Source of the DNA: a virus
Taxonomy: Duplodnaviria > Heunggongvirae > Uroviricota > Caudoviricetes
DNA: 9,321 bases
IMG/VR virus record: IMGVR_UViG_2695420859_000017
Direction: 5' to 3' (one strand)
Shown one piece after another: positions 943 through 8,912 of the stretch. Made by a program: the position numbers and the translations under genes. Under the pieces are notes generated by a model. That model was given only the letters and a program-made list of their open reading frames with translations. It did no database searches and was not told the DNA's origin. How positions within the stretch are numbered: position 1 is the stretch's first letter; each line of letters opens with the position of its first letter.

Positions 943-2715
943 ATGACCATCACCACAGACACCACTCTTTTACACGACCCGCGTCGTCAGGCGGCGCTGC
1001 TGTACTGGCAGGGGTTTTCCGTGCCGCAGATTGCCGCCATGTTGCAGATGAAACGCCCGACGGTGCAGAGCTGGAAACAGCGCGACGGCTGGGACAGCGT
1101 TGCCCCCATCAGCCGTGTCGAAATGAGCCTGGAAGCGCGGCTGACCCAGCTCATCATCAAACCGCAGAAAACCGGCGGTGACTTCAAGGAAATTGACCTG
1201 CTCGGACGCCAGATTGAACGACTGGCACGGGTAAACCGCTACAGTCAGACCGGCAACGAGGCAGACCTTAATCCGAACGTCGCTAACCGCAACAAAGGCG
1301 AGCGTCGCAAACCGAAAAAGAATTTTTTCAGTGACGAAGCCATCGAAAAGCTGGAGCAGATTTTCTTTGAGCAGTCTTTCGACTATCAGTTGCACTGGTA
1401 TCGCGCCGGGCTTGAGCACCGCATCCGCGATATACTGAAATCCCGCCAGATTGGCGCAACGTTTTATTTTTCCCGCGAGGCGCTGCTGCGCGCCCTGAAA
1501 ACCGGCCATAACCAGATTTTTCTGTCGGCCAGTAAAACGCAGGCGTATGTGTTCCGCGAATACATCATCGCCTTTGCCCGTCTGGTTGACGTTGACCTGA
1601 CCGGTGACCCGATTGTCCTGGGCAATAACGGCGCAAAACTAATTTTTCTCGGCACCAACTCCAACACCGCGCAGAGCCATAACGGCGACCTGTACGTCGA
1701 CGAGATTTTCTGGATCCCGAATTTTCAGGTACTGCGTAAGGTGGCATCAGGTATGGCCTCACAGAGTCACCTGCGCTCGACCTATTTCTCCACCCCGTCC
1801 ACGCTGGCGCACGACGCCTACCCGTTCTGGTCAGGTGAACTGTTCAACCGGGGACGCGCCAGCGCCGCCGAACGCGTGGAAATCGACGTCAGTCATAACG
1901 CCCTTGCCGGTGGTCTTCTCTGTGCGGACGGCCAGTGGCGGCAGATTGTCACCATTGAGGATGCCCTGAAAGGTGGCTGCACACTGTTCGACATTGAGCA
2001 GCTCAAACGTGAAAACAGCGCCGACGATTTTAAAAACCTGTTCATGTGTGAATTTGTTGACGACAAGGCGTCGGTGTTCCCGTTCGAGGAGCTGCAACGC
2101 TGCATGGTCGACACGCTGGAAGAATGGGAAGACTATGCGCCGTTTGCCGCCAATCCGTTCGGCTCACGTCCGGTATGGATTGGTTACGACCCGTCACACC
2201 GTGGCGACAGTGCCGGATGCGTGGTGCTGGCACCGCCGGTGGTGGCCGGTGGCAAATTCAGAATACTTGAGCGTCACCAGTGGAAAGGCATGGACTTTGC
2301 CACCCAGGCTGAATCCATCCGCAAACTCACCGAAAAATACAACGTCGAATACATCGGAATTGATGCCACCGGCCTCGGTGTCGGCGTGTTCCAGCTCGTT
2401 CGCTCGTTCTATCCCGCCGCGCGCGATATCCGCTACACGCCGGAAATGAAAACCGCAATGGTGCTCAAGGCAAAAGACGTTATTCGCCGTGGCTGTCTGG
2501 AATATGACGTCAGCGCCACCGACATCACCAGCTCGTTTATGGCTATCCGCAAGACCATGACCAGCAGCGGACGCAGCGCCACCTATGAGGCCAGCCGCAG
2601 CGAGGAAGCCAGCCACGCCGACCTCGCCTGGGCGACCATGCACGCCCTGTTAAATGAGCCACTCACCGCCGGTATCAGCACCCCGCTGACATCCACCATT
2701 CTGGAGTTTTACTGA
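943..2715 (+). CDS. P: Terminase large (ATPase) subunit GpP
   Basis: 590-codon ORF beginning MTITTDTTLLHDPRRQAALLYWQGFSVPQIAAMLQMKRPTVQSWKQRDGWD, recognised as P2-family GpP. ATG at 943 follows GAGG at 933..936; the ORF-track start at 913 is an upstream TTG and less likely. Stop TGA overlaps the next ATG (ATGA at 2715..2718). Confidence 0.9.
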   Translation: MTITTDTTLLHDPRRQAALLYWQGFSVPQIAAMLQMKRPTVQSWKQRDGWDSVAPISRVEMSLEARLTQLIIKPQKTGGDFKEIDLLGRQIERLARVNRYSQTGNEADLNPNVANRNKGERRKPKKNFFSDEAIEKLEQIFFEQSFDYQLHWYRAGLEHRIRDILKSRQIGATFYFSREALLRALKTGHNQIFLSASKTQAYVFREYIIAFARLVDVDLTGDPIVLGNNGAKLIFLGTNSNTAQSHNGDLYVDEIFWIPNFQVLRKVASGMASQSHLRSTYFSTPSTLAHDAYPFWSGELFNRGRASAAERVEIDVSHNALAGGLLCADGQWRQIVTIEDALKGGCTLFDIEQLKRENSADDFKNLFMCEFVDDKASVFPFEELQRCMVDTLEEWEDYAPFAANPFGSRPVWIGYDPSHRGDSAGCVVLAPPVVAGGKFRILERHQWKGMDFATQAESIRKLTEKYNVEYIGIDATGLGVGVFQLVRSFYPAARDIRYTPEMKTAMVLKAKDVIRRGCLEYDVSATDITSSFMAIRKTMTSSGRSATYEASRSEEASHADLAWATMHALLNEPLTAGISTPLTSTILEFY

Positions 2716-3872
2716 TGAGCAAGAAAAAAGGGAAAACACCGCAACCTGCGGCAAAAACAATGATCGCCAGCGCCCCGAAAATGGAGGCATTCACCTTTGG
2801 CGAGCCGGTACCGGTACTCGACCGCCGTGACATTCTTGATTACGTCGAATGCATCAGTAACGGCAGATGGTATGAGCCACCGGTCAGCTTTACCGGTCTG
2901 GCAAAAAGCCTGCGTGCCGCCGTGCATCACAGCTCCCCGATTTACGTCAAACGCAATATTCTGGCCTCGACATTTATCCCGCATCCGTGGCTTTCACAAC
3001 AGGATTTCAGCCGCTTTGTGCTGGATTTTCTGGTGTTCGGTAATGCGTTTCTGGAAAAGCGTTACAGCACCACCGGTAAGGTCATCAGACTGGAAACCTC
3101 ACCGGCAAAATATACCCGCCGTGGTGTGGAAGAGGATGTTTACTGGTGGGTGCCGTCCTTCAACGAGCCGACAGCCTTCACGCCCGGCTCCGTGTTTCAC
3201 CTGCTGGAGCCGGATATTAATCAGGAGCTGTACGGCCTGCCGGAATATCTCAGCGCCCTTAATTCTGCCTGGCTGAATGAGTCGGCCACGCTGTTTCGCC
3301 GCAAGTATTACGAAAACGGTGCTCATGCCGGATATATCATGTACGTCACTGATGCCGTGCAGGATCGCAACGATATCGAAATGCTTCGCGAAAACATGGT
3401 TAAGTCGAAAGGCCGCAACAACTTTAAAAATCTGTTTCTCTATGCCCCACAGGGGAAAGCCGACGGCATTAAAATTATCCCGCTCAGTGAAGTGGCAACG
3501 AAGGACGATTTTTTTAATATCAAAAAAGCCAGCGCCGCAGACCTGCTGGACGCGCACCGCATCCCTTTTCAGTTGATGGGCGGCAAGCCGGAGAACGTCG
3601 GGTCGCTGGGTGATATTGAGAAAGTGGCAAAGGTCTTTGTACGCCGTGGCTGTCTGGAATATGACGTCAGCGCCACCGACATCACCAGCTCGTTTATGGC
3701 TATCCGCAAGACCATGACCAGCAGCGGACGCAGCGCCACCTATGAGGCCAGCCGCAGCGAGGAAGCCAGCCACGCCGACCTCGCCTGGGCGACCATGCAC
3801 GCCCTGTTAAATGAGCCACTCACCGCCGGTATCAGCACCCCGCTGACATCCACCATTCTGGAGTTTTACTGA
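2715..3872 (+). pseudogene. Chimeric ORF: portal (GpQ) N-terminal ~309 codons fused in frame to a duplicated terminase C-terminal 76 codons
   Basis: Residues 1 to ~309 match the full portal copy at 4916..5935. From about nt 3642 the sequence shows no differences on visual comparison from terminase 2485..2715 (RRGCLEYDVSATDITSSFMAIRK...STILEFY), ending at a second copy of the P-stop/Q-start overlap. Confidence 0.55.
3642..3872 (+). repeat. Duplicate copy of the terminase 3' end (equals 2485..2715)
   Basis: Visual base-by-base comparison of 3642..3872 with 2485..2715 found no differences, including the terminal tactgATGagc junction. Confidence 0.8.
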
Positions 3873-4271
3873 TGAGCAAGAAAAAAGGGAAAACACCGCA
3901 ACCTGCGGCAAAAAAAATGACCGCCAGCACCCCGAAAATGGAGGCATTCACCTTTGGCGAGCCGGTGCCGGTACTCGACCGCCGTGACATTCTGGATTAC
4001 GTCGAATGCATCAGTAACGGCAGATGGTATGAGCCACCGGTCAGCTTTACCGGTCTGGCAAAAAGCCTGCGTGCTGCCGTGCATCACAGCTCACCGATTT
4101 ACGTCAAACGCAATATTCTGGCGTCGACATTTATCCCGCATCCGTGGCTTTCCCAGCAGGATTTCAGCCGCTTTGTGCTGGATTTTCTGGTGTTCGGTAA
4201 TGCGTTTCTGGAAAAGCGTTACAGCACCACCGGTAAAGTTATCAGGCTGGAAACCTCACCGGCAAAATATA
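3872..4271 (+). pseudogene. Portal (GpQ) 5' fragment, ~133 codons, diverged allele
   Basis: Begins MSKKKGKTPQPAAKKMTASTPKMEAF and tracks the portal to ...ETSPAKY. It differs from the other two copies by scattered single-base changes (KTMIASAP becomes KKMTASTP, plus apparently synonymous changes). After ~4271 the portal frame runs into unrelated sequence and stops at 4471. Confidence 0.55.
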
Positions 4272-4916
4272 TCGGTGTTCCCGTTCGAGGAGCTGCAACG
4301 CTGCATGGTCGACACGCTGGAAGAATGGGAAGACTATGCACCCTTTGCCGCCAATCCGTTCGGCTCCCGCCCGGTATGGATTGGTTACGACCCGTCACAC
4401 CGTGGCGACAGCGCCGGATGCGTGGTGCTGGCACCGCCGGTGGTGGCCGGTGGCAAATTCAGAATACTTGAGCGTCACCAGTGGAAAGGCATGGACTTTG
4501 CCACCCAGGCGGAATCCATCCGCAAACTCACCGAAAAATACAACGTCGAATACATCGGTATTGATGCCACCGGCCTCGGTGTCGGCGTGTTCCAGCTCGT
4601 GCGCTCGTTCTATCCTGCCGCGCGCGACATCCGCTACACGCCGGAAATGAAAACCGCAATGGTGCTCAAGGCAAAAGACGTTATCCGCCGTGGCTGTCTG
4701 GAATACGACGTCAGCGCCACCGACATCACCAGCTCGTTTATGGCTATCCGTAAGACCATGACCAGCAGCGGACGCAGCGCCACCTATGAGGCCAGCCGCA
4801 GCGAGGAAGCCAGCCACGCCGACCTCGCCTGGGCGACCATGCACGCCCTGTTAAATGAGCCACTCACCGCCGGTATCAGCACCCCGCTGACATCCACCAT
4901 TCTGGAGTTTTACTGA
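4272..4916 (+). pseudogene. Terminase (GpP) 3' fragment, ~214 codons, diverged allele, out of frame with the preceding portal fragment
   Basis: 4272..4916 corresponds to terminase 2071..2715 (VFPFEELQRCMVDTLEEWEDYAPFAANPF ... STILEFY) with several apparently synonymous single-base differences. It lies in a different frame from the portal fragment upstream; the ORF-track entry 3954..4916 is this frame reading backwards by chance. Confidence 0.55.
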
Positions 4917-5935
4917 TGAGCAAGAAAAAAGGGAAAACACCGCAACCTGCGGCAAAAACAATGATCGCCAGCGCCCCGAAAATGGAGGCATTCACCTTTG
5001 GCGAGCCGGTACCGGTACTCGACCGCCGTGACATTCTTGATTACGTCGAATGCATCAGTAACGGCAGATGGTATGAGCCACCGGTCAGCTTTACCGGTCT
5101 GGCAAAAAGCCTGCGTGCCGCCGTGCATCACAGCTCCCCGATTTACGTCAAACGCAATATTCTGGCCTCGACATTTATCCCGCATCCGTGGCTTTCACAA
5201 CAGGATTTCAGCCGCTTTGTGCTGGATTTTCTGGTGTTCGGTAATGCGTTTCTGGAAAAGCGTTACAGCACCACCGGTAAGGTCATCAGACTGGAAACCT
5301 CACCGGCAAAATATACCCGCCGTGGTGTGGAAGAGGATGTTTACTGGTGGGTGCCGTCCTTCAACGAGCCGACAGCCTTCGCGCCCGGCTCCGTGTTTCA
5401 CCTGCTGGAGCCGGATATTAATCAGGAACTGTACGGCCTGCCGGAATATCTCAGCGCCCTTAACTCTGCCTGGCTGAATGAGTCGGCCACGCTGTTCCGC
5501 CGCAAGTATTACGAAAATGGCGCACATGCCGGATACATCATGTACGTCACTGATGCCGTGCAGGACCGCAACGATATCGAAATGCTTCGCGAAAACATGG
5601 TCAAGTCGAAAGGCCGCAACAACTTTAAAAATCTGTTTCTCTATGCCCCACAGGGAAAAGCCGACGGCATTAAAATTATCCCGCTCAGTGAAGTGGCGAC
5701 GAAGGACGATTTTTTTAATATCAAAAAAGCCAGCGCGGAAGATCTAATGAGTGCCCATCGAGTCCCCCCGCAAATGATGGGGATGATGCCTAATAATGCG
5801 GGAGGATTTGGCGATGTAGTTAAAGCGGCTAAAGTTTTTGTCAGGAATGAGTTAGGGCATCTACAATCGCGAATGAAGGAATTGAACTCATGGATAGGTG
5901 AAACAGTTATAACATTTAACAATTACTCGTTATAA
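4916..5935 (+). CDS. Q: Portal protein GpQ, full length (339 aa), with a diverged AT-rich 3' end
   Basis: ORF starting MSKKKGKTPQPAAKTMIASAPKMEAFTFGEPVPVLDRRDILDYVECISNGRWYEPP, recognised as the P2-family portal. ATG overlaps the stop of the preceding terminase-derived segment. It is the only copy with a portal-type C-terminus and stop. Confidence 0.85.
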   Translation: MSKKKGKTPQPAAKTMIASAPKMEAFTFGEPVPVLDRRDILDYVECISNGRWYEPPVSFTGLAKSLRAAVHHSSPIYVKRNILASTFIPHPWLSQQDFSRFVLDFLVFGNAFLEKRYSTTGKVIRLETSPAKYTRRGVEEDVYWWVPSFNEPTAFAPGSVFHLLEPDINQELYGLPEYLSALNSAWLNESATLFRRKYYENGAHAGYIMYVTDAVQDRNDIEMLRENMVKSKGRNNFKNLFLYAPQGKADGIKIIPLSEVATKDDFFNIKKASAEDLMSAHRVPPQMMGMMPNNAGGFGDVVKAAKVFVRNELGHLQSRMKELNSWIGETVITFNNYSL

Positions 5936-5941
5936 ACCCTG

Positions 5942-5965
5942 CAGGCTTTGGCTCACCAAAGCCTG
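5942..5965. terminator. Hairpin between the convergent portal gene and the cargo operon (10-bp perfect stem CAGGCTTTGG / CCAAAGCCTG, 4-nt loop)
   Basis: Seen directly. Lies in the 35-bp gap between the Q stop (5935) and the minus-strand stop at 5971. No strong T-tract on either side, so intrinsic-terminator strength is uncertain. Confidence 0.45.
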
Positions 5966-5970
5966 TAAGA

Positions 5971-6588
5971 TCAAGCAGATAGGCAAAACGTTTCTGTTTG
6001 CCCCAAGTGTTCAAACACAGTAATCGATGTTACTTTTCCGGCACTTATTTTGTTAAGGAACTTCAATATTTGTTGAGGCTCCTCCATGACTGCTGTTTTC
6101 TTGATTATAAATCCCTCAAGATTTTTCAAGCTGTATCGCTGACTTGAGTTCTCAAGAGCAGCAATCATTGCCGAACTGCGCATATCTCTATGTCCACTAG
6201 CTCTACAAACGACAGCATAATTTAAATTAAGCTCTACAAAATTTTGCCTTGTCAACTCTGGAAGGTGTTTACATACAAAATGAAATAAAGTCGTAACACC
6301 TTCATGTATTTTCAACCTTATATCATCCTTTTGTGAACGTCCTTCTTTAAATTCAATGAAGTACAATTTATCTTCATATAAAAATAAAGCATCCGGTGAT
6401 TTTTCTTTAAACTCACGCTTATAAACAGGCGAGCAATTTAACACCGTATCATAGTTAAAGCCCTTCGAATCACAAATAATAAAATTCCGAGCCCCTGCAT
6501 CATTGTAGCTTAATCCGGTTACATCAACCATTGAATCAGGGTATACTTCACACAGTTTTCTAAAAACAAGTTCCTCATTAGAAATCAT
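5971..6588 (-). CDS. Hypothetical 205-aa protein, second gene of the cargo operon; family not recognised; possible PD-(D/E)xK-like nuclease motifs
   Basis: ATG at 6586..6588 is preceded by AGGAG (reverse complement of 6596..6600) at 7-nt spacing and overlaps the upstream gene by 11 nt (ATGATTTCTAA). Strongly AT-rich. Contains FIICD (res 36-40) and LFLYEDK / FIEFK (res 68-81), which could be PD-(D/E)xK motifs II and III; this is inference only. Confidence 0.7.
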   Translation of the reverse strand: MISNEELVFRKLCEVYPDSMVDVTGLSYNDAGARNFIICDSKGFNYDTVLNCSPVYKREFKEKSPDALFLYEDKLYFIEFKEGRSQKDDIRLKIHEGVTTLFHFVCKHLPELTRQNFVELNLNYAVVCRASGHRDMRSSAMIAALENSSQRYSLKNLEGFIIKKTAVMEEPQQILKFLNKISAGKVTSITVFEHLGQTETFCLSA

Positions 6589-7906
6589 CCAAATACTCCT
6601 GATTCAATTCTTTTAATGGTGATGCCAAAAGATTAATTGCATATGCAACATTATCAGTAATATCAACAAAAGATGTAAACTCTTCCCCAGGGAATCGCTC
6701 GCTTATATAGAACCGATTTTCAATCCCAATTTTATCGCTATAATGTTTAAGAGCATCAATAATATACGGGCTATGTGTTGTAATTATTATATCAACCCCC
6801 ATAGACACTAACTCACAAATAATCTCAGCATAGAAAACCTGCCATTTTGGATGTAAGTTCACCTCTGGCTCATCAATAATCAGTAACGAGTTATCTACTG
6901 CTGCCCCGCACTTAACAAGCATATCAAGAATACCTAAAGACTTTATTCCTGACGCAATATTACCCGATGTGACTTTATAGCCTTGCTTCTCTAGAAAAAA
7001 ATCATTCTTTTCAATATCATAAACCACTTCACCACAGAAAGTAGCATTGATTTTGTTAGATATACGCAGTGACTCTTTTAAAAATGAGCCATCATCAAAA
7101 ATATCCGAATGCACAAATAAATTATAAACTGAATCGCTTAATTTTATTGATAGATCTTTCACATGCAATGGAACAGTTAGACGTCCTGATTCACCATTAC
7201 TATCAAATAAAGTTTTAGCAAAACGAACCAAATTATGAAATTGCATAATACTTGGAGAGTCAACATAGGTTGCGTCGACATATCCTAAGCCATCAGTATA
7301 ATCAAATTGTGATATACCATCTTTAGTCCATTTAATATCAATTAACTGACTAACACCATCAACAACTTCCAGAGATGCTTTAACTGGATTTTGATTACCC
7401 TTCTGAATAATTTCGCCTCTAAATTCAGAGTAAAAGGCCTTACGCAGAGCACGGTTGATAGCAGATAGCTCATCATCTGGCTCAAGCATTATATCTCTGA
7501 TTTTTCTTATATCAGAGAGTACAGAATCAGCCATCAATTCTGGAAGAAGCCCTTCCTCAATCAAATTATATAGATAACTCTCTCTCTCAGCCAAAGTTTT
7601 AGAGATATCTATTTTTAGAGAGGCATAAAACTTTCTTGGATTGAATAACTCTCTAATTTCCGGCGTAGCAGCAATATTAATCCTCCTACGCAGATTAAAA
7701 TATATTTTCTCTACGATAGATGTAATTCTATCCTCTTTGTCTTCTTCTAAATCCTCTTGATAACGAGATATCGCCTTTACCATTGAAAACAATATTTTCC
7801 CTACGGTACTCTTCCCCGTATCATTTTCACCAGTTATGACAGTTAAACCACCAACTGAAACATCAGCTTCTGCAATAGTTCCAAAATTATTAATTTTTAT
7901 ACGCAT
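6578..7906 (-). CDS. OLD/ABC-family (AAA_15/AAA_21-like) ATPase, 442 aa, with no Toprim or other nuclease domain
   Basis: N-terminal Walker A GENDTGKST (nt 7805..7831), C-terminal Walker B LLIIDEPE (nt 6863..6886) and H-loop TTHSP (nt 6767..6781), with ~300 residues between the Walker motifs. This layout is typical of OLD/GajA/AriA/PtuA-type ATPases. Spot counts of 60-nt lines give roughly 27-30% GC against about 60% in the structural genes. Confidence 0.8.
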   Translation of the reverse strand: MRIKINNFGTIAEADVSVGGLTVITGENDTGKSTVGKILFSMVKAISRYQEDLEEDKEDRITSIVEKIYFNLRRRINIAATPEIRELFNPRKFYASLKIDISKTLAERESYLYNLIEEGLLPELMADSVLSDIRKIRDIMLEPDDELSAINRALRKAFYSEFRGEIIQKGNQNPVKASLEVVDGVSQLIDIKWTKDGISQFDYTDGLGYVDATYVDSPSIMQFHNLVRFAKTLFDSNGESGRLTVPLHVKDLSIKLSDSVYNLFVHSDIFDDGSFLKESLRISNKINATFCGEVVYDIEKNDFFLEKQGYKVTSGNIASGIKSLGILDMLVKCGAAVDNSLLIIDEPEVNLHPKWQVFYAEIICELVSMGVDIIITTHSPYIIDALKHYSDKIGIENRFYISERFPGEEFTSFVDITDNVAYAINLLASPLKELNQEYLDDF

Positions 7907-7946
7907 AAACTATCTCACTGTACGCCAGATATCCAACCTTATGAAT

Positions 7947-7975
7947 ACTTTAGCATATTTCCAAAAAGATGACAC
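7947..7975 (-). promoter_or_regulatory. Candidate sigma70 promoter for the cargo operon (GTGTCA-N17-TAAAGT with a TG extended -10)
   Basis: Read on the minus strand between cos and the ATPase start codon. A 4/6 match at -35 and TGnTAAAGT at -10 would leave a ~40-nt 5' UTR. Pattern match by eye only. Confidence 0.25.
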
Positions 7976-7999
7976 TGGTGGTTGCAGGCCTCGCGCGCA

Positions 8000-8018
8000 G
8001 TGCTTTCCCCGCCTCGCC
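8000..8018 (-). other. cos: cos site: 19-nt cohesive-end sequence identical to P2 (GGCGAGGCGGGGAAAGCAC on the minus strand)
   Basis: Reverse complement of 8000..8018 is GGCGAGGCGGGGAAAGCAC, followed by CTGCGCGC, matching my recollection of the P2 left end. It sits in a GC-rich block, in the expected neighbourhood of the portal gene. Confidence 0.75.
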
Positions 8019-8141: not shown

Positions 8142-8302
8142 ATAGCTTTTTAAGTACGCCATACCGCAACTGTACATTTTTAAGCAATTGGCAACTTTAA
8201 AAAATTTACATTGCTTTCAAGACCTTATCATCCGTAGTCTCTGTTTTTTACTTTGAGCTACATCAATAAAATCTCAAACATGTTTAATGCAAAGCCCTTG
8301 TT

Positions 8303-8356
8303 ACACAACATAGAATGTATGTCTAGAAACAACGACATACTATATGTTGTGTTTTT
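8303..8356 (+). other. Long imperfect hairpin (arms ACACAACATAGAATGTATGTC / GACATACTATATGTTGTGT, 10-nt loop) followed by a T-run; terminator-like or sRNA 3' end
   Basis: Seen directly: 10-bp and 7-bp perfect stem segments separated by a small internal loop, then TTTTT at 8352..8356. An A-tract is lacking on the other side, so orientation is plus. Confidence 0.4.
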
Positions 8357-8418
8357 CCGGCTCTCTGTTCGGTGATATGCCAAATCACTTTGCGTTTAAA
8401 CAGAGCATTATTTCAGGG

Positions 8419-8433
8419 CAAGACTTCGCTCAA
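8419..8433 (+). repeat. 15-bp direct repeat CAAGACTTCGCTCAA, copy 1
   Basis: Exact 15-mer found again at 8683..8697; the two copies bracket the small ORF and its terminator. Confidence 0.5.
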
Positions 8434-8496
8434 AAGTCATTCCACCTAAGAAGCGCATATACCGGTGGAAGTTGCCCTCTACTTACAGGAGGCAAT

Positions 8497-8610
8497 ATGA
8501 AGAAATGCTATTACTGCATTCTCGTTCTGGCCCTCTTTGGCTATCCAAACGGTAGTCCGAGTGGTTTGTCAGTAAACGTCAGTAATATCAATGTCAGCAT
8601 TATGCTTTAA
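8497..8610 (+). CDS. Small hydrophobic peptide, 37 aa (MKKCYYCILVLALFGYPNGSPSGLSVNVSNINVSIML); function unknown
   Basis: ATG at 8497 is preceded by a consensus AGGAGG at 8487..8492 (4-nt spacing). Stop at 8608..8610 is followed 13 nt later by a strong intrinsic terminator. The N-terminus is KK followed by a ~13-residue hydrophobic stretch. Short length keeps confidence low. Confidence 0.35.
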   Translation: MKKCYYCILVLALFGYPNGSPSGLSVNVSNINVSIML

Positions 8611-8622
8611 TATGCTTCAAAC

Positions 8623-8652
8623 AAAAAAACCACCTGCCAGGGTGGTTTTTTT
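8623..8652. terminator. Rho-independent terminator, bidirectional form (AAAAAAACCACC-TGCCAG-GGTGGTTTTTTT)
   Basis: Seen directly: perfect GC-containing stem with a 6-nt loop, A-tract upstream and T7 downstream. Confidence 0.8.
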
Positions 8653-8682
8653 GCGCCCATCATCAATACGATGAAAGACTGA

Positions 8683-8697
8683 CAAGACTTCGCTCAA
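8683..8697 (+). repeat. 15-bp direct repeat CAAGACTTCGCTCAA, copy 2
   Basis: Identical to 8419..8433; AAGACT-like motifs also occur at 8675..8680 and 8696..8700. Confidence 0.5.
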
Positions 8698-8912
8698 GAC
8701 GAATTATGCGTCGACATAAGGTTACCCGCAATGATTTTATTAGACTAAATGGATGGCCTTTTATGACCCGGATCAAACGGCTGTCCTTACCGACATGCTA
8801 GTCACTCAATAGCATTTAGCCTTCTAATTCAGCATGCTATTGACCTTCTGCTGCCCCATAACTGCTCCGCATAAGCCATTCAATGCCATATCAAATCACG
8901 TTGTGTTTTTAC

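Follow-up and report, generated by a model that had tools for sequence, protein, structure and literature searches.

A WonA-type ABC ATPase and a PD-(D/E)xK-fold protein as a probable two-gene anti-phage defence cassette in a P2-like prophage of Escherichia coli

A pair of overlapping genes was identified between the cohesive-end site and the portal gene of a P2-like E. coli prophage, within a window of 9321 nucleotides (the whole stretch of DNA analysed; IMG/VR record IMGVR_UViG_2695420859_000017). The upstream gene (6578..7906, minus strand) codes for an Old/WonA-type ABC ATPase of 442 aa without a fused nuclease, which is proposed, from its motifs, its homologues and an AF2 model, as the sensor or regulator subunit. 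The downstream gene (5971..6588, minus strand) codes for a PD-(D/E)xK-fold protein of 205 aa, proposed as the nuclease effector from its structure model and a conserved motif. The pair probably constitutes an anti-phage defence cassette that the prophage bears as accessory cargo, in which the ATPase would sense and license and the PD-(D/E)xK nuclease would execute. Most likely it is of one kind with the recently described WonAB, PD-T4-4 and HEC-02, its nuclease family being one that the databases searched do not recognise.

The pair is foreign, low-GC accessory cargo at the gpA–gpQ hotspot of P2. The cohesive-end sequence of cos (GGCGAGGCGGGGAAAGCAC; 8000..8018, minus strand) is identical to that of P2 when aligned with the left and right ends of P2, which locates the pair between cosL and the portal gene Q. 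The annotated order in NZ_CP059723 is terminase, portal, ATPase/nuclease pair, cos and replication endonuclease; nothing else is coded between Q and cos, and there is no third gene. Variable, non-core genes between the replication gene A and the portal gene Q are the mark of the gpA–gpQ defence hotspot, where P2 has its own old and tin genes (PMC9122126), and the pair is of this type. Its GC content is 0.33–0.36 against 0.52–0.60 in the phage backbone. The right edge of the cargo lies at ∼7993, where homology common to 2136 genomes begins, ∼7 nt from the cohesive-end sequence. The cassette was found in 8 of 5426 complete E. coli genomes, as against 2136 for the flanking cos segment; it is missing from P2 and from >99% of P2-like prophages with the same cos flank, and was not found among 50,697 deposited phage genomes. 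No RNA family was detected in the window by an Rfam scan, and a literature search on the RefSeq proteins WP_001220547 and WP_000624949 found no paper.

The ATPase belongs to the Old/AAA_15/AAA_21 ABC-ATPase superfamily and carries the Old-type motifs GxNxxGKS and DEPExxLHP. The Walker A motif or P-loop (GENDTGKST, with K32) was placed at 7805..7831, the ABC signature-like motif ASGIKS at 6938..6955 and the segment from Walker B (LLIIDEPE; LLIIDEPEVNLHP, with D345 and E346) through the H-loop TTH378 at 6773..6886, all three by translation in place (minus strand). In an alignment of 42 homologues with identity down to 36%, G26, N28, G31, K32, S33 and T34 of Walker A, A318 and G320 of the signature-like motif, and D345, E346, P347, E348, H352, P353 and H378 of the Walker B/H-loop region are invariant; the OLD-type Walker A, Walker B and H-loop motifs are present and conserved. 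The spacing agrees with what a sequence-only reading of this DNA had estimated: 313 residues separate K32 from D345 (∼300 had been given), and the protein ends 64 residues after H378 (about 60 had been given). In the AF2 model (pLDDT 88) all 442 residues are taken up by an ABC head and its inserts. Insert 1 (residues 49–162; 7421..7762, minus strand), for which the AF2 secondary structure gives six helices of 6–27 residues each, is modelled as a helical bundle and not as a long coiled coil. It is absent from the 342-aa HEC-02A, and the alignment to WonA is loose there. Close homologues are all 425–460 aa long, so the shortness of the ATPase is characteristic of its family and does not come from truncation. 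Homologues of the ATPase number 1468 at E≤1e-10 and relatives of the partner 618 cluster representatives at E≤1e-3 (∼600 clusters at 50% identity), far beyond what chance would give.

The same reading had described the protein as resembling the N-terminal half of P2 Old (a polypeptide of ∼590 aa; the P2 old CDS proved to encode 586 aa) while lacking its nuclease half. The lack was borne out. A Pfam search of the ATPase returned no Toprim or nuclease match; a match to Tox-REase-2 at residues 208–254, with E 0.08 and no significant stretch, scored 13.6 bits where the cut-off is 27.6 and was discarded as noise. The C-terminal Toprim domain that is fused to the ATPase in the OLD family has no counterpart here among Pfam or PADLOC domains, the AF2 model consisting of ABC head and inserts, and the presence of a Toprim or other nuclease domain in hidden or degenerate form was ruled out by Pfam, the AF2 model and the alignment to P2 Old taken together. 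The claim had been made to hang on the absence of a degenerate nuclease domain and on conservation of the Walker motifs, and it came through on both counts. The resemblance itself stood in part. Both proteins are members of the ABC ATPase superfamily and have the motifs GxNxxGKS and DEPExxLHP...THS in common, and the PADLOC Old model matches the ATPase at 1.4e-14, but only 52–57 residues could be aligned: BLASTP gave 39% identity over 57 aa, and hhalign (93.6%) gave a single aligned segment of 52 columns, from about Walker B as far as the H-loop, whereas WonA is far closer with 335 columns. Judged by these alignments, P2 Old is a distant relative whose likeness is limited to the ATPase motifs. 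P2 Old combines ATPase and C-terminal Toprim nuclease in one chain, whereas the cassette has its nuclease, of the PD-(D/E)xK type, as a protein of its own. No similarity was found between the partner and the Toprim half of P2 Old, and with a partner that is not Toprim the pair was ruled out as a split Old. The P2 old gene and the cassette occupy the same P2-like hotspot, but old lies to the right of cos and the cassette to the left, between cosL and Q.

The 205-aa protein models as a PD-(D/E)xK-fold predicted nuclease. The predicted structure has an alpha/beta core in which an acidic residue opens one strand and a (D/E)xK element follows in the next, D66 standing directly before strand 67–71 and the ExK within strand 74–81. 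The catalytic-type motif D66-x12-E79-F-K81 (DALFLYEDKLYFIEFK; 6346..6393, minus strand) was translated in place and checked in the family alignment, in which 67 sequences with identities down to 17% (mean column identity 19%) are invariant at D66, E79, F80, K81 and K93 and nearly invariant at S27 and D47. Database models do not describe this family: none was found for it in Pfam, NCBIfam or PADLOC, and DUF4435 matched neither the protein nor its 67 relatives, the Pfam NERD model did not match the family, and no HNH match was obtained for the partner (Pfam, PADLOC) or its relatives. The family consensus, scanned against PADLOC and Pfam, recovered only HEC-02B at 0.0067 and DUF7867 at 0.044. The suggestion, made from the sequence alone, that nuclease activity might be supplied in trans by this protein is now the supported alternative, given the PD-(D/E)xK fold, the invariant D...ExK and the position immediately downstream of the ATPase gene.

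The two genes are co-inherited as an operon unit. They overlap by 11 nt at the ATPase stop and nuclease start (ATGATTTCTAA; 6578..6588, minus strand, from the ORF coordinates and the sequence), an arrangement consistent with translational coupling. In all six distant loci compared, the gene order is the same, with the nuclease immediately downstream and overlaps of 8–14 nt. The contexts of these loci are unrelated: an integrase island, a locus with a Tn5 transposase neighbour, a V. cholerae cassette array, a Janthinobacterium P2-like prophage, where the pair sits at another site, and Sulfurovum. The identities of ATPase and nuclease co-vary over 19 contig-matched pairs (Spearman 0.88). The best 150 relatives contained no Rosetta-stone fusion of the two proteins; a single long match (P0280, 605 aa) was rejected as a spurious, repetitive Kunitz protein.

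Three validated defence systems combine an ATPase with a PD-(D/E)xK protein, namely WonAB, PD-T4-4 and HEC-02. WonAB, the "WASA OLD-ABC ATPase nuclease", represents a wider "OLD-ABC ATPase + novel REase" operon type (Adams et al. 2025, PMC12137116), which according to the citation in that paper was first noted by Krishnan et al. 2020. WonAB is likewise a prophage-borne two-gene operon, for a small PD-(D/E)xK protein and an OLD-type ABC ATPase that has no nuclease fused to it; it resides in WASA-1 of V. cholerae, and the cassette in a P2-like prophage of E. coli. The 42-sequence ATPase family was aligned by hhalign with four WonA sequences (Supplementary Table 4, PMC12137116) over nearly the full length, 335 columns (Prob 99.3%, E 2.9e-20; residues 2–388 against 3–363), and the protein qualifies as a stand-alone WonA-type OLD-ABC ATPase. 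The motifs GKST..K.iF and TTHSPYI are shared; between Walker A and B the ATPase is ∼45 residues longer than WonA (K32/E346 here, K34/E300 in WonA). The nuclease has in common with WonB the layout of an upstream D, a second D, E-x-K-G and a polar residue on the next helix, but its length is 205 aa against ∼145 aa for WonB (CD...ELKG...Q motif). When the 67-sequence nuclease family was aligned by hhalign with three and then with nine WonB sequences, probabilities of 0.7% and 1.6% were obtained and only 26–27 columns around D...ExK were aligned; homology of the partner to WonB was therefore unsupported in two tests, the fold class being the same. A V. cholerae wonAB qPCR primer gave no match among the viral contigs searched.

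The E. coli system PD-T4-4, which has been validated (Vassallo et al. 2022, PMC9519451), is an "ATPase, nuclease" pair borne by a mobile element. Its operon (1973 bp) and the cassette (1936 bp) are of similar size, its nuclease is also classed as PD-(D/E)xK, and its ATPase model, PD-T4-4_A, of similar length at 460–474 aa, matches the cassette ATPase; PD-T4-4 resides in an ICE-like element, the cassette in the P2 hotspot. The sequence comparison with PD-T4-4 (RCO57999.1, RCO57988.1) was made through its PADLOC models. The best PADLOC matches of the ATPase were HEC-02A (1.8e-33) and PD-T4-4_A (1.7e-30 and 1.3e-24). The PD-T4-4_B models matched neither the 205-aa protein (E≤1) nor any of the 67 family members (E≤0.01). 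HEC-02 consists of an ABC ATPase and a small, 169-aa NERD-like PD-(D/E)xK protein, lies embedded in Hachiman loci where the cassette lies in a prophage, and depends on both genes to give protection (Payne et al. 2024 preprint, 10.1101/2024.01.29.577857). Against the tested HEC-02A (342 aa), which is without the insert of ∼100 aa, hhalign aligned 110 C-terminal columns only (97.8%). The nuclease of the window gave no PADLOC match to HEC-02B; the HEC-02B models were weakly matched by 9 of the 67 family members (best ∼1e-5), and in hhalign of the family against the tested HEC-02B (Prob 9%) only the D-x12-ExK motif was aligned, in register. By sequence similarity the nuclease cannot be recognised as WonB, PD-T4-4_B or NERD, and it appears only marginally related to HEC-02B.

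In the mechanism proposed, both proteins would be made together from one translationally coupled operon, and the ABC ATPase, probably an ATP-sandwich dimer, would act as sensor and licensing subunit with the 205-aa PD-(D/E)xK protein, its nuclease effector, probably docked on it. On infection by another phage, a cue would be sensed through the variable helical inserts of the ATPase, and ATP binding or hydrolysis would then license the nuclease to cut nucleic acid; the infecting phage would be stopped and the host cell probably arrested too (abortive infection). We infer complex formation, the need for both genes, ATP-dependent licensing and the abortive outcome by analogy. WonAB requires the ATPase residues of WonA and K71 of WonB, and acts by abortive infection (PMC12137116); all 16 nuclease-NTPase systems tested in another study formed complexes (10.1101/2025.07.10.664194).

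The substrate of the nuclease is the point at which another reading of the same architecture competes with a DNA-cutting mode. An RNA-specific effector, as proposed for WonAB, would cut tRNA or rRNA, turn translation off and make the infection abortive with no degradation of DNA; we regard this as a possibility of limited weight. WonAB leaves DNA undegraded and seems to hit translation (PMC12137116), which leaves some plausibility to the earlier alternative of a system working without DNA cleavage. Against RNA targeting, the nuclease is without detectable WonB homology beyond the catalytic motif, most other structural neighbours of its model are DNA endonucleases (for example PspGI, McrC, FokI, Hef and N.BspD6I), and PD-T4-4 has been grouped with nucleic-acid-targeting PD-(D/E)xK systems; the fold alone does not tell the substrate. 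A related and equally tentative proposal is that the protein represents a new, minimal PD-(D/E)xK effector family, recruited by WonA-like ATPases independently of WonB, PD-T4-4_B and NERD, in a distinct type of system, overlooked by present detection tools, that would cut a translation RNA and not DNA, as has been reported for WonB, PARIS AriB and P2 OLD. A protein that does not cleave at all, being instead an inactive adaptor or DNA-binding module, for example in SMC/Rad50-like clamping or compaction of DNA, is quite improbable: D66, E79, K81 and K93 do not vary in 67 sequences whose mean column identity is 19%, which is the pattern of an active site and not of a scaffold, and the ATPase has no long coiled coil.

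A toxin–antitoxin or addiction module that stabilises the prophage, with the nuclease as toxin, the ATPase as antitoxin and no role in phage defence, is unlikely. The Pfam label of AAA_21 ("putative AbiEii toxin, Type IV TA system"), the carriage of the cassette on mobile elements, and the finding that over-produced WonB is toxic and Lon-labile (PMC12137116) would fit it; but WonAB is not a simple toxin–antitoxin pair, its toxicity needing WonA and the ATPase activity of WonA (PMC12137116), so simple neutralisation is excluded for WonAB. HEC-02 and PD-T4-4, moreover, protect against phages, and the invariant catalytic motifs of the ATPase would not be needed by a mere sequestering antitoxin. 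The case that the cassette is one of the named OLD-family systems, PARIS (AriA and AriB), Septu (PtuA and PtuB) or Gabija (GajA and GajB), and works alike is very weak. PARIS and Septu are also two-gene systems of an AAA_15/AAA_21 ABC ATPase, with a core similar to that of the cassette, and a separate nuclease, and PARIS too occurs in P2/P4 hotspots. Their effectors differ: AriB is Toprim/DUF4435 and PtuB is HNH, whereas the partner here has the model and motif of a PD-(D/E)xK protein and shows no DUF4435/Toprim, HNH or UvrD-helicase signature. The NCBIfam PtuA model scored 37 bits against a cut-off of 500, and Gabija, a GajA ATPase–Toprim fusion with a UvrD-like GajB helicase, is not matched by an ATPase without Toprim and a neighbour that is not a helicase. 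Matches of the ATPase to all three systems mirror the shared ABC core only, and membership was ruled out on the fold of the partner. Least credible of all is a service of the two genes to the life cycle of the phage itself (cos processing, packaging or replication). The start of the cassette within ∼7 nt of the cohesive-end sequence would suit such a role; it is contradicted by the absence of the cassette from P2 and from nearly all P2-like prophages with the same cos flank, by its foreign GC content and by its occurrence in non-phage contexts.

Pairs of an ABC ATPase and a nuclease (Old, Gabija, PARIS, Septu, WonAB, PD-T4-4, HEC-02) are coming to light as one of the largest groups of immune systems in bacteria. 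Sensing falls to the ATPase, and execution to a nuclease that can be exchanged. As a defence system, the cassette would add a further effector family to the WonA-like sensor, at the locus where P2 carries the fused old; the unfused effector at this locus makes it a natural case of one sensor scaffold with a swapped effector. The effector is missed by the PADLOC, Pfam and NCBIfam models, and the system would consequently go uncalled by those of PADLOC, so that counts of defence content in P2-like prophages may be too low. The cassette would also offer a compact E. coli model for sensing by WonA-type ATPases and for the choice between DNA and RNA cutting by their PD-(D/E)xK partners. The general understanding of the build of these systems is unchanged, and the gain is therefore mainly incremental.

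Possible control regions lie on both sides of the operon. The leader of 93 nt between cos and the ATPase start codon (7907..7999, minus strand) is the sole room for an operon promoter, and a consensus scan of it returned no promoter-like site. A 10-bp inverted repeat, read from the sequence (CAGGCTTTGG-tgag-CCAAAGCCTG; 5942..5965), separates the stop of the nuclease gene from that of the convergent portal gene Q; a consensus terminator scan gave no call at the repeat. The repeat is a possible bidirectional terminator, and tQ of P2 is annotated at the equivalent position.

The window is a piece of an E. coli P2-like prophage, in which the large terminase gene (913-2715, + strand) and portal gene Q (4916-5935, + strand) are accompanied by two - strand ORFs, one of 205 aa (the partner; 5971-6588) and one of 442 aa (the ATPase; 6578-7906). 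A 2.4-kb stretch is identical in E. coli BUCT2930 (NZ_CP059723.1), where the RefSeq gene order is terminase, portal, WP_000624949.1 ("hypothetical protein"), WP_001220547.1 ("AAA family ATPase"), 1 kb unannotated and replication endonuclease gpA. The 19-nt cos cohesive end (GGCGAGGCGGGGAAAGCAC; 8000-8018, - strand) is unchanged from P2 and accompanied by the P2 right-hand cos flank; since the P2 match left of cos extends for only ~7 nt, the ATPase and partner genes fill the space from cosL to the Q 3′ end, which in P2 is just 167 bp, terminator tQ included. The insertion site is the gpA-gpQ hotspot next to cos in P2-like phages, occupied by old and tin in P2 itself and by numerous defence systems elsewhere (PMC9122126). 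The GC content is 33-36% in the cassette versus 52-60% in the phage backbone. Among 5426 complete E. coli genomes the cassette turned up in just 8 (the adjoining cos segment in 2136), and none of 50,697 deposited phage genomes had it. The nuclease gene and portal gene Q converge, with 35 nt between their stop codons; in this gap, where P2 has tQ, lies an inverted repeat (5942-5965) with perfect 10-bp arms and a loop of 4 nt, for which a consensus terminator scan gave no call.

The Pfam matches of the 442-aa protein were AAA_15 and AAA_21; none was to a nuclease domain. Walker A (GENDTGKST, 7805-7831), the signature (ASGIKS, 6938-6955) and Walker B (LLIIDEPEVNLHP) through H-loop TTH378 (6773-6886), all translated in place on the - strand, are invariant across 42 homologues down to 36% identity. 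An AlphaFold model (pLDDT 88, pTM 0.81) covers the entire chain and comprises N-terminal β-hairpins with the P-loop helix, helical Insert 1 (residues 49-162), a β-sheet region (177-215), a second helical insert (Insert 2, 247-290), the half with signature, Walker B and H-loop, and, at the C-terminal end, two strands and a terminal helix. As its six helices are just 6-27 residues long, Insert 1 is modelled as a helical bundle rather than a long SMC-like coiled coil; the Walker A-Walker B region, put at ~300 residues by the sequence-only reading, spans 313 residues with helical inserts and no long coiled coil in the model. That reading had also described an Old-like ATPase lacking the nuclease half and ending about 60 residues past the H-loop. 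The end lies 64 residues from H378, and the missing half is borne out as a family trait, not a truncation, because all close homologues are 425-460 aa long. The resemblance to Old holds for the superfamily, but the nearest relatives are WonAB, PD-T4-4 and HEC-02. [quoted passage not shown]

The 205-aa protein had no match in Pfam, NCBIfam or PADLOC. Its family comprises 64 homologous clusters (~200 aa, Gammaproteobacteria), and a profile search returned 618 representatives, the best 150 of which are nearly all 76-234 aa long, i.e. stand-alone. Across 67 family members (down to 17% identity) D66, E79, F80, K81 and K93 are invariant and S27 and D47 nearly so. In the predicted structure (pLDDT 85, pTM 0.83) D66 immediately precedes one strand, E79-x-K81 lies in the next, and a long helix with K93 follows the ExK strand; from this layout the protein is predicted to have the PD-(D/E)xK arrangement, a nuclease fold.

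The ATPase stop and partner start overlap by 11 nt. The gene order and an overlap of 8-14 nt are repeated in six distant loci with unrelated surroundings: in a marine gammaproteobacterium (L003, adjoining an integrase; metagenomic contig L004 is similar), in Pseudomonas (adjoining a Tn5-type transposase), in Vibrio cholerae GCA_028489255.1 (L006:1980-3861, in an array of small cassettes), on a metagenomic contig, in Janthinobacterium sp. 35 (GCA_002754575.1, L008:4001-5876, in a P2-like prophage between tail genes S and V) and in Sulfurovum (partner a distant member of the 205-aa family; Prob 92%, motif conserved). ATPase and partner identities to the query co-vary (Spearman 0.88, 19 contig-matched pairs). 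The ATPase and partner genes form a single unit. Of the alternatives in the earlier reading, the one in which the downstream gene provides any nuclease activity in trans is supported; the partner is a PD-(D/E)xK protein and not a Toprim domain.

The Janthinobacterium cassette (37% and 43% identity for ATPase and nuclease) lies in a betaproteobacterial prophage at a different site, gpS-gpV, and P2-like phages have therefore acquired the cassette at least twice. The V. cholerae pair has small unrelated neighbours (glyoxalase, acetyltransferases, DUF3709, DUF4144), a run that resembles an integron-type cassette array; with a partner of 200 aa whose motif lysine is residue 80, this pair is not WonAB. 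In another P2-like backbone, where the genes to the right differ, the cassette occurs as a 96.5% variant (L011; NZ_CP159691.1, "plasmid unnamed3", linear, 3847 bp). Annotated as a plasmid, this is in fact a P2-like prophage fragment, bounded by a portal pseudogene and a DUF3850/orf91-like gene, with two additional hypothetical genes right of the cassette.

Three experimentally validated systems have the ATPase-nuclease architecture: PD-T4-4 ("ATPase, nuclease", 1973 bp; PMC9519451), whose nuclease is classed PD-(D/E)xK (10.1101/2025.07.10.664194); HEC-02, an ABC ATPase with a NERD-like nuclease, both genes being required (10.1101/2024.01.29.577857); and WonAB, an OLD-ABC ATPase with a "novel REase" (PMC12137116). 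WonAB defence is lost in ATPase and in nuclease point mutants; abortive infection sets in once phage replication has begun, with DNA intact and translation blocked, and WonB is Lon-labile and toxic only with active WonA (PMC12137116). The WonA/WonB and HEC-02 references were the sequences printed in the supplements of the source papers. The ATPase family aligned nearly end to end with WonA (99.3%, 335 columns), but with the tested HEC-02A over the last 110 columns only. The nuclease family, in contrast, aligned with WonB in the 26-27 catalytic-motif columns only (Prob 0.7-1.6%) and with the tested HEC-02B at 9% probability, motif in register; HEC-02B models matched 9 of its 67 members at ~1e-5, and no PD-T4-4_B model or Pfam NERD matched any. 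Given the near-full WonA alignment, the proposed sensor subunit is a WonA-like ATPase; the effector shares the fold class of the three known effectors yet probably forms its own family, related to HEC-02B marginally at most (PD-T4-4_B was compared via models only). The Walker B region of the ATPase is hit at 2.5e-20 by PADLOC model PDLC04146, which bears the name HEC-02B; this model apparently describes an ATPase despite its "B" label, which could confuse automated HEC-02 calls.

The cassette is uncharacterised, but fits a known design. Best supported, and held with reasonable though not high confidence, is a defence system in which the ATPase licenses the nuclease. The two proteins would be co-translated, as the gene overlap suggests, and would form a complex, since all 16 nuclease-NTPase systems tested do so (10.1101/2025.07.10.664194) and a WonAB complex is predicted. 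An infection cue may be sensed by the variable ATPase inserts, whereupon ATP binding or hydrolysis would license nucleic-acid cleavage at the D66/E79/K81 site and a competing phage would be halted, probably with sacrifice of the infected cell. The target may be DNA or a translation RNA; the WonAB data, together with a report of P2 OLD itself as a tRNase (10.64898/2026.07.10.737580), make RNA a serious possibility. It is unlikely that the overlapping genes encode a toxin and its antitoxin; that the partner, with its invariant motif, is an inactive adaptor is likewise improbable, as is a housekeeping role for the phage. PADLOC has no model for the effector family, so its models would miss the cassette; the broader model of PMC12137116 might already list this E. 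coli locus.

A 0.6-kb unannotated segment (8300-8912) separates cos from gpA and was found in 150 complete E. coli genomes, with or without the ATPase cassette. It holds a hydrophobic, signal-peptide-like ORF of 37 aa (8497-8610, + strand; MKKCYYCILVLALFGYPNG...), 3′ of which a GC-rich hairpin (~8623-8653) lies between A and T runs. Possibly it is a further small cargo module, lying across cos from the ATPase cassette.

The terminase-3′/portal-5′ junction is present in three copies, 97-99% identical, within 2469-4969 (2469-2768, 3626-3925 and 4670-4969), and there is a further repeat pair (2071-2370 vs 4272-4571). The three copies give rise to chimeric ORFs: a portal N-terminus joined to a terminase C-terminus (2715-3872), a truncated portal (3872-4471) and a terminase C-terminus (3954-4916). 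This 2.8-kb region corresponds to a single copy of ~1.57 kb in every complete E. coli genome mapped; it has the appearance of either a local rearrangement or a chimera assembled from co-resident P2-like prophages.
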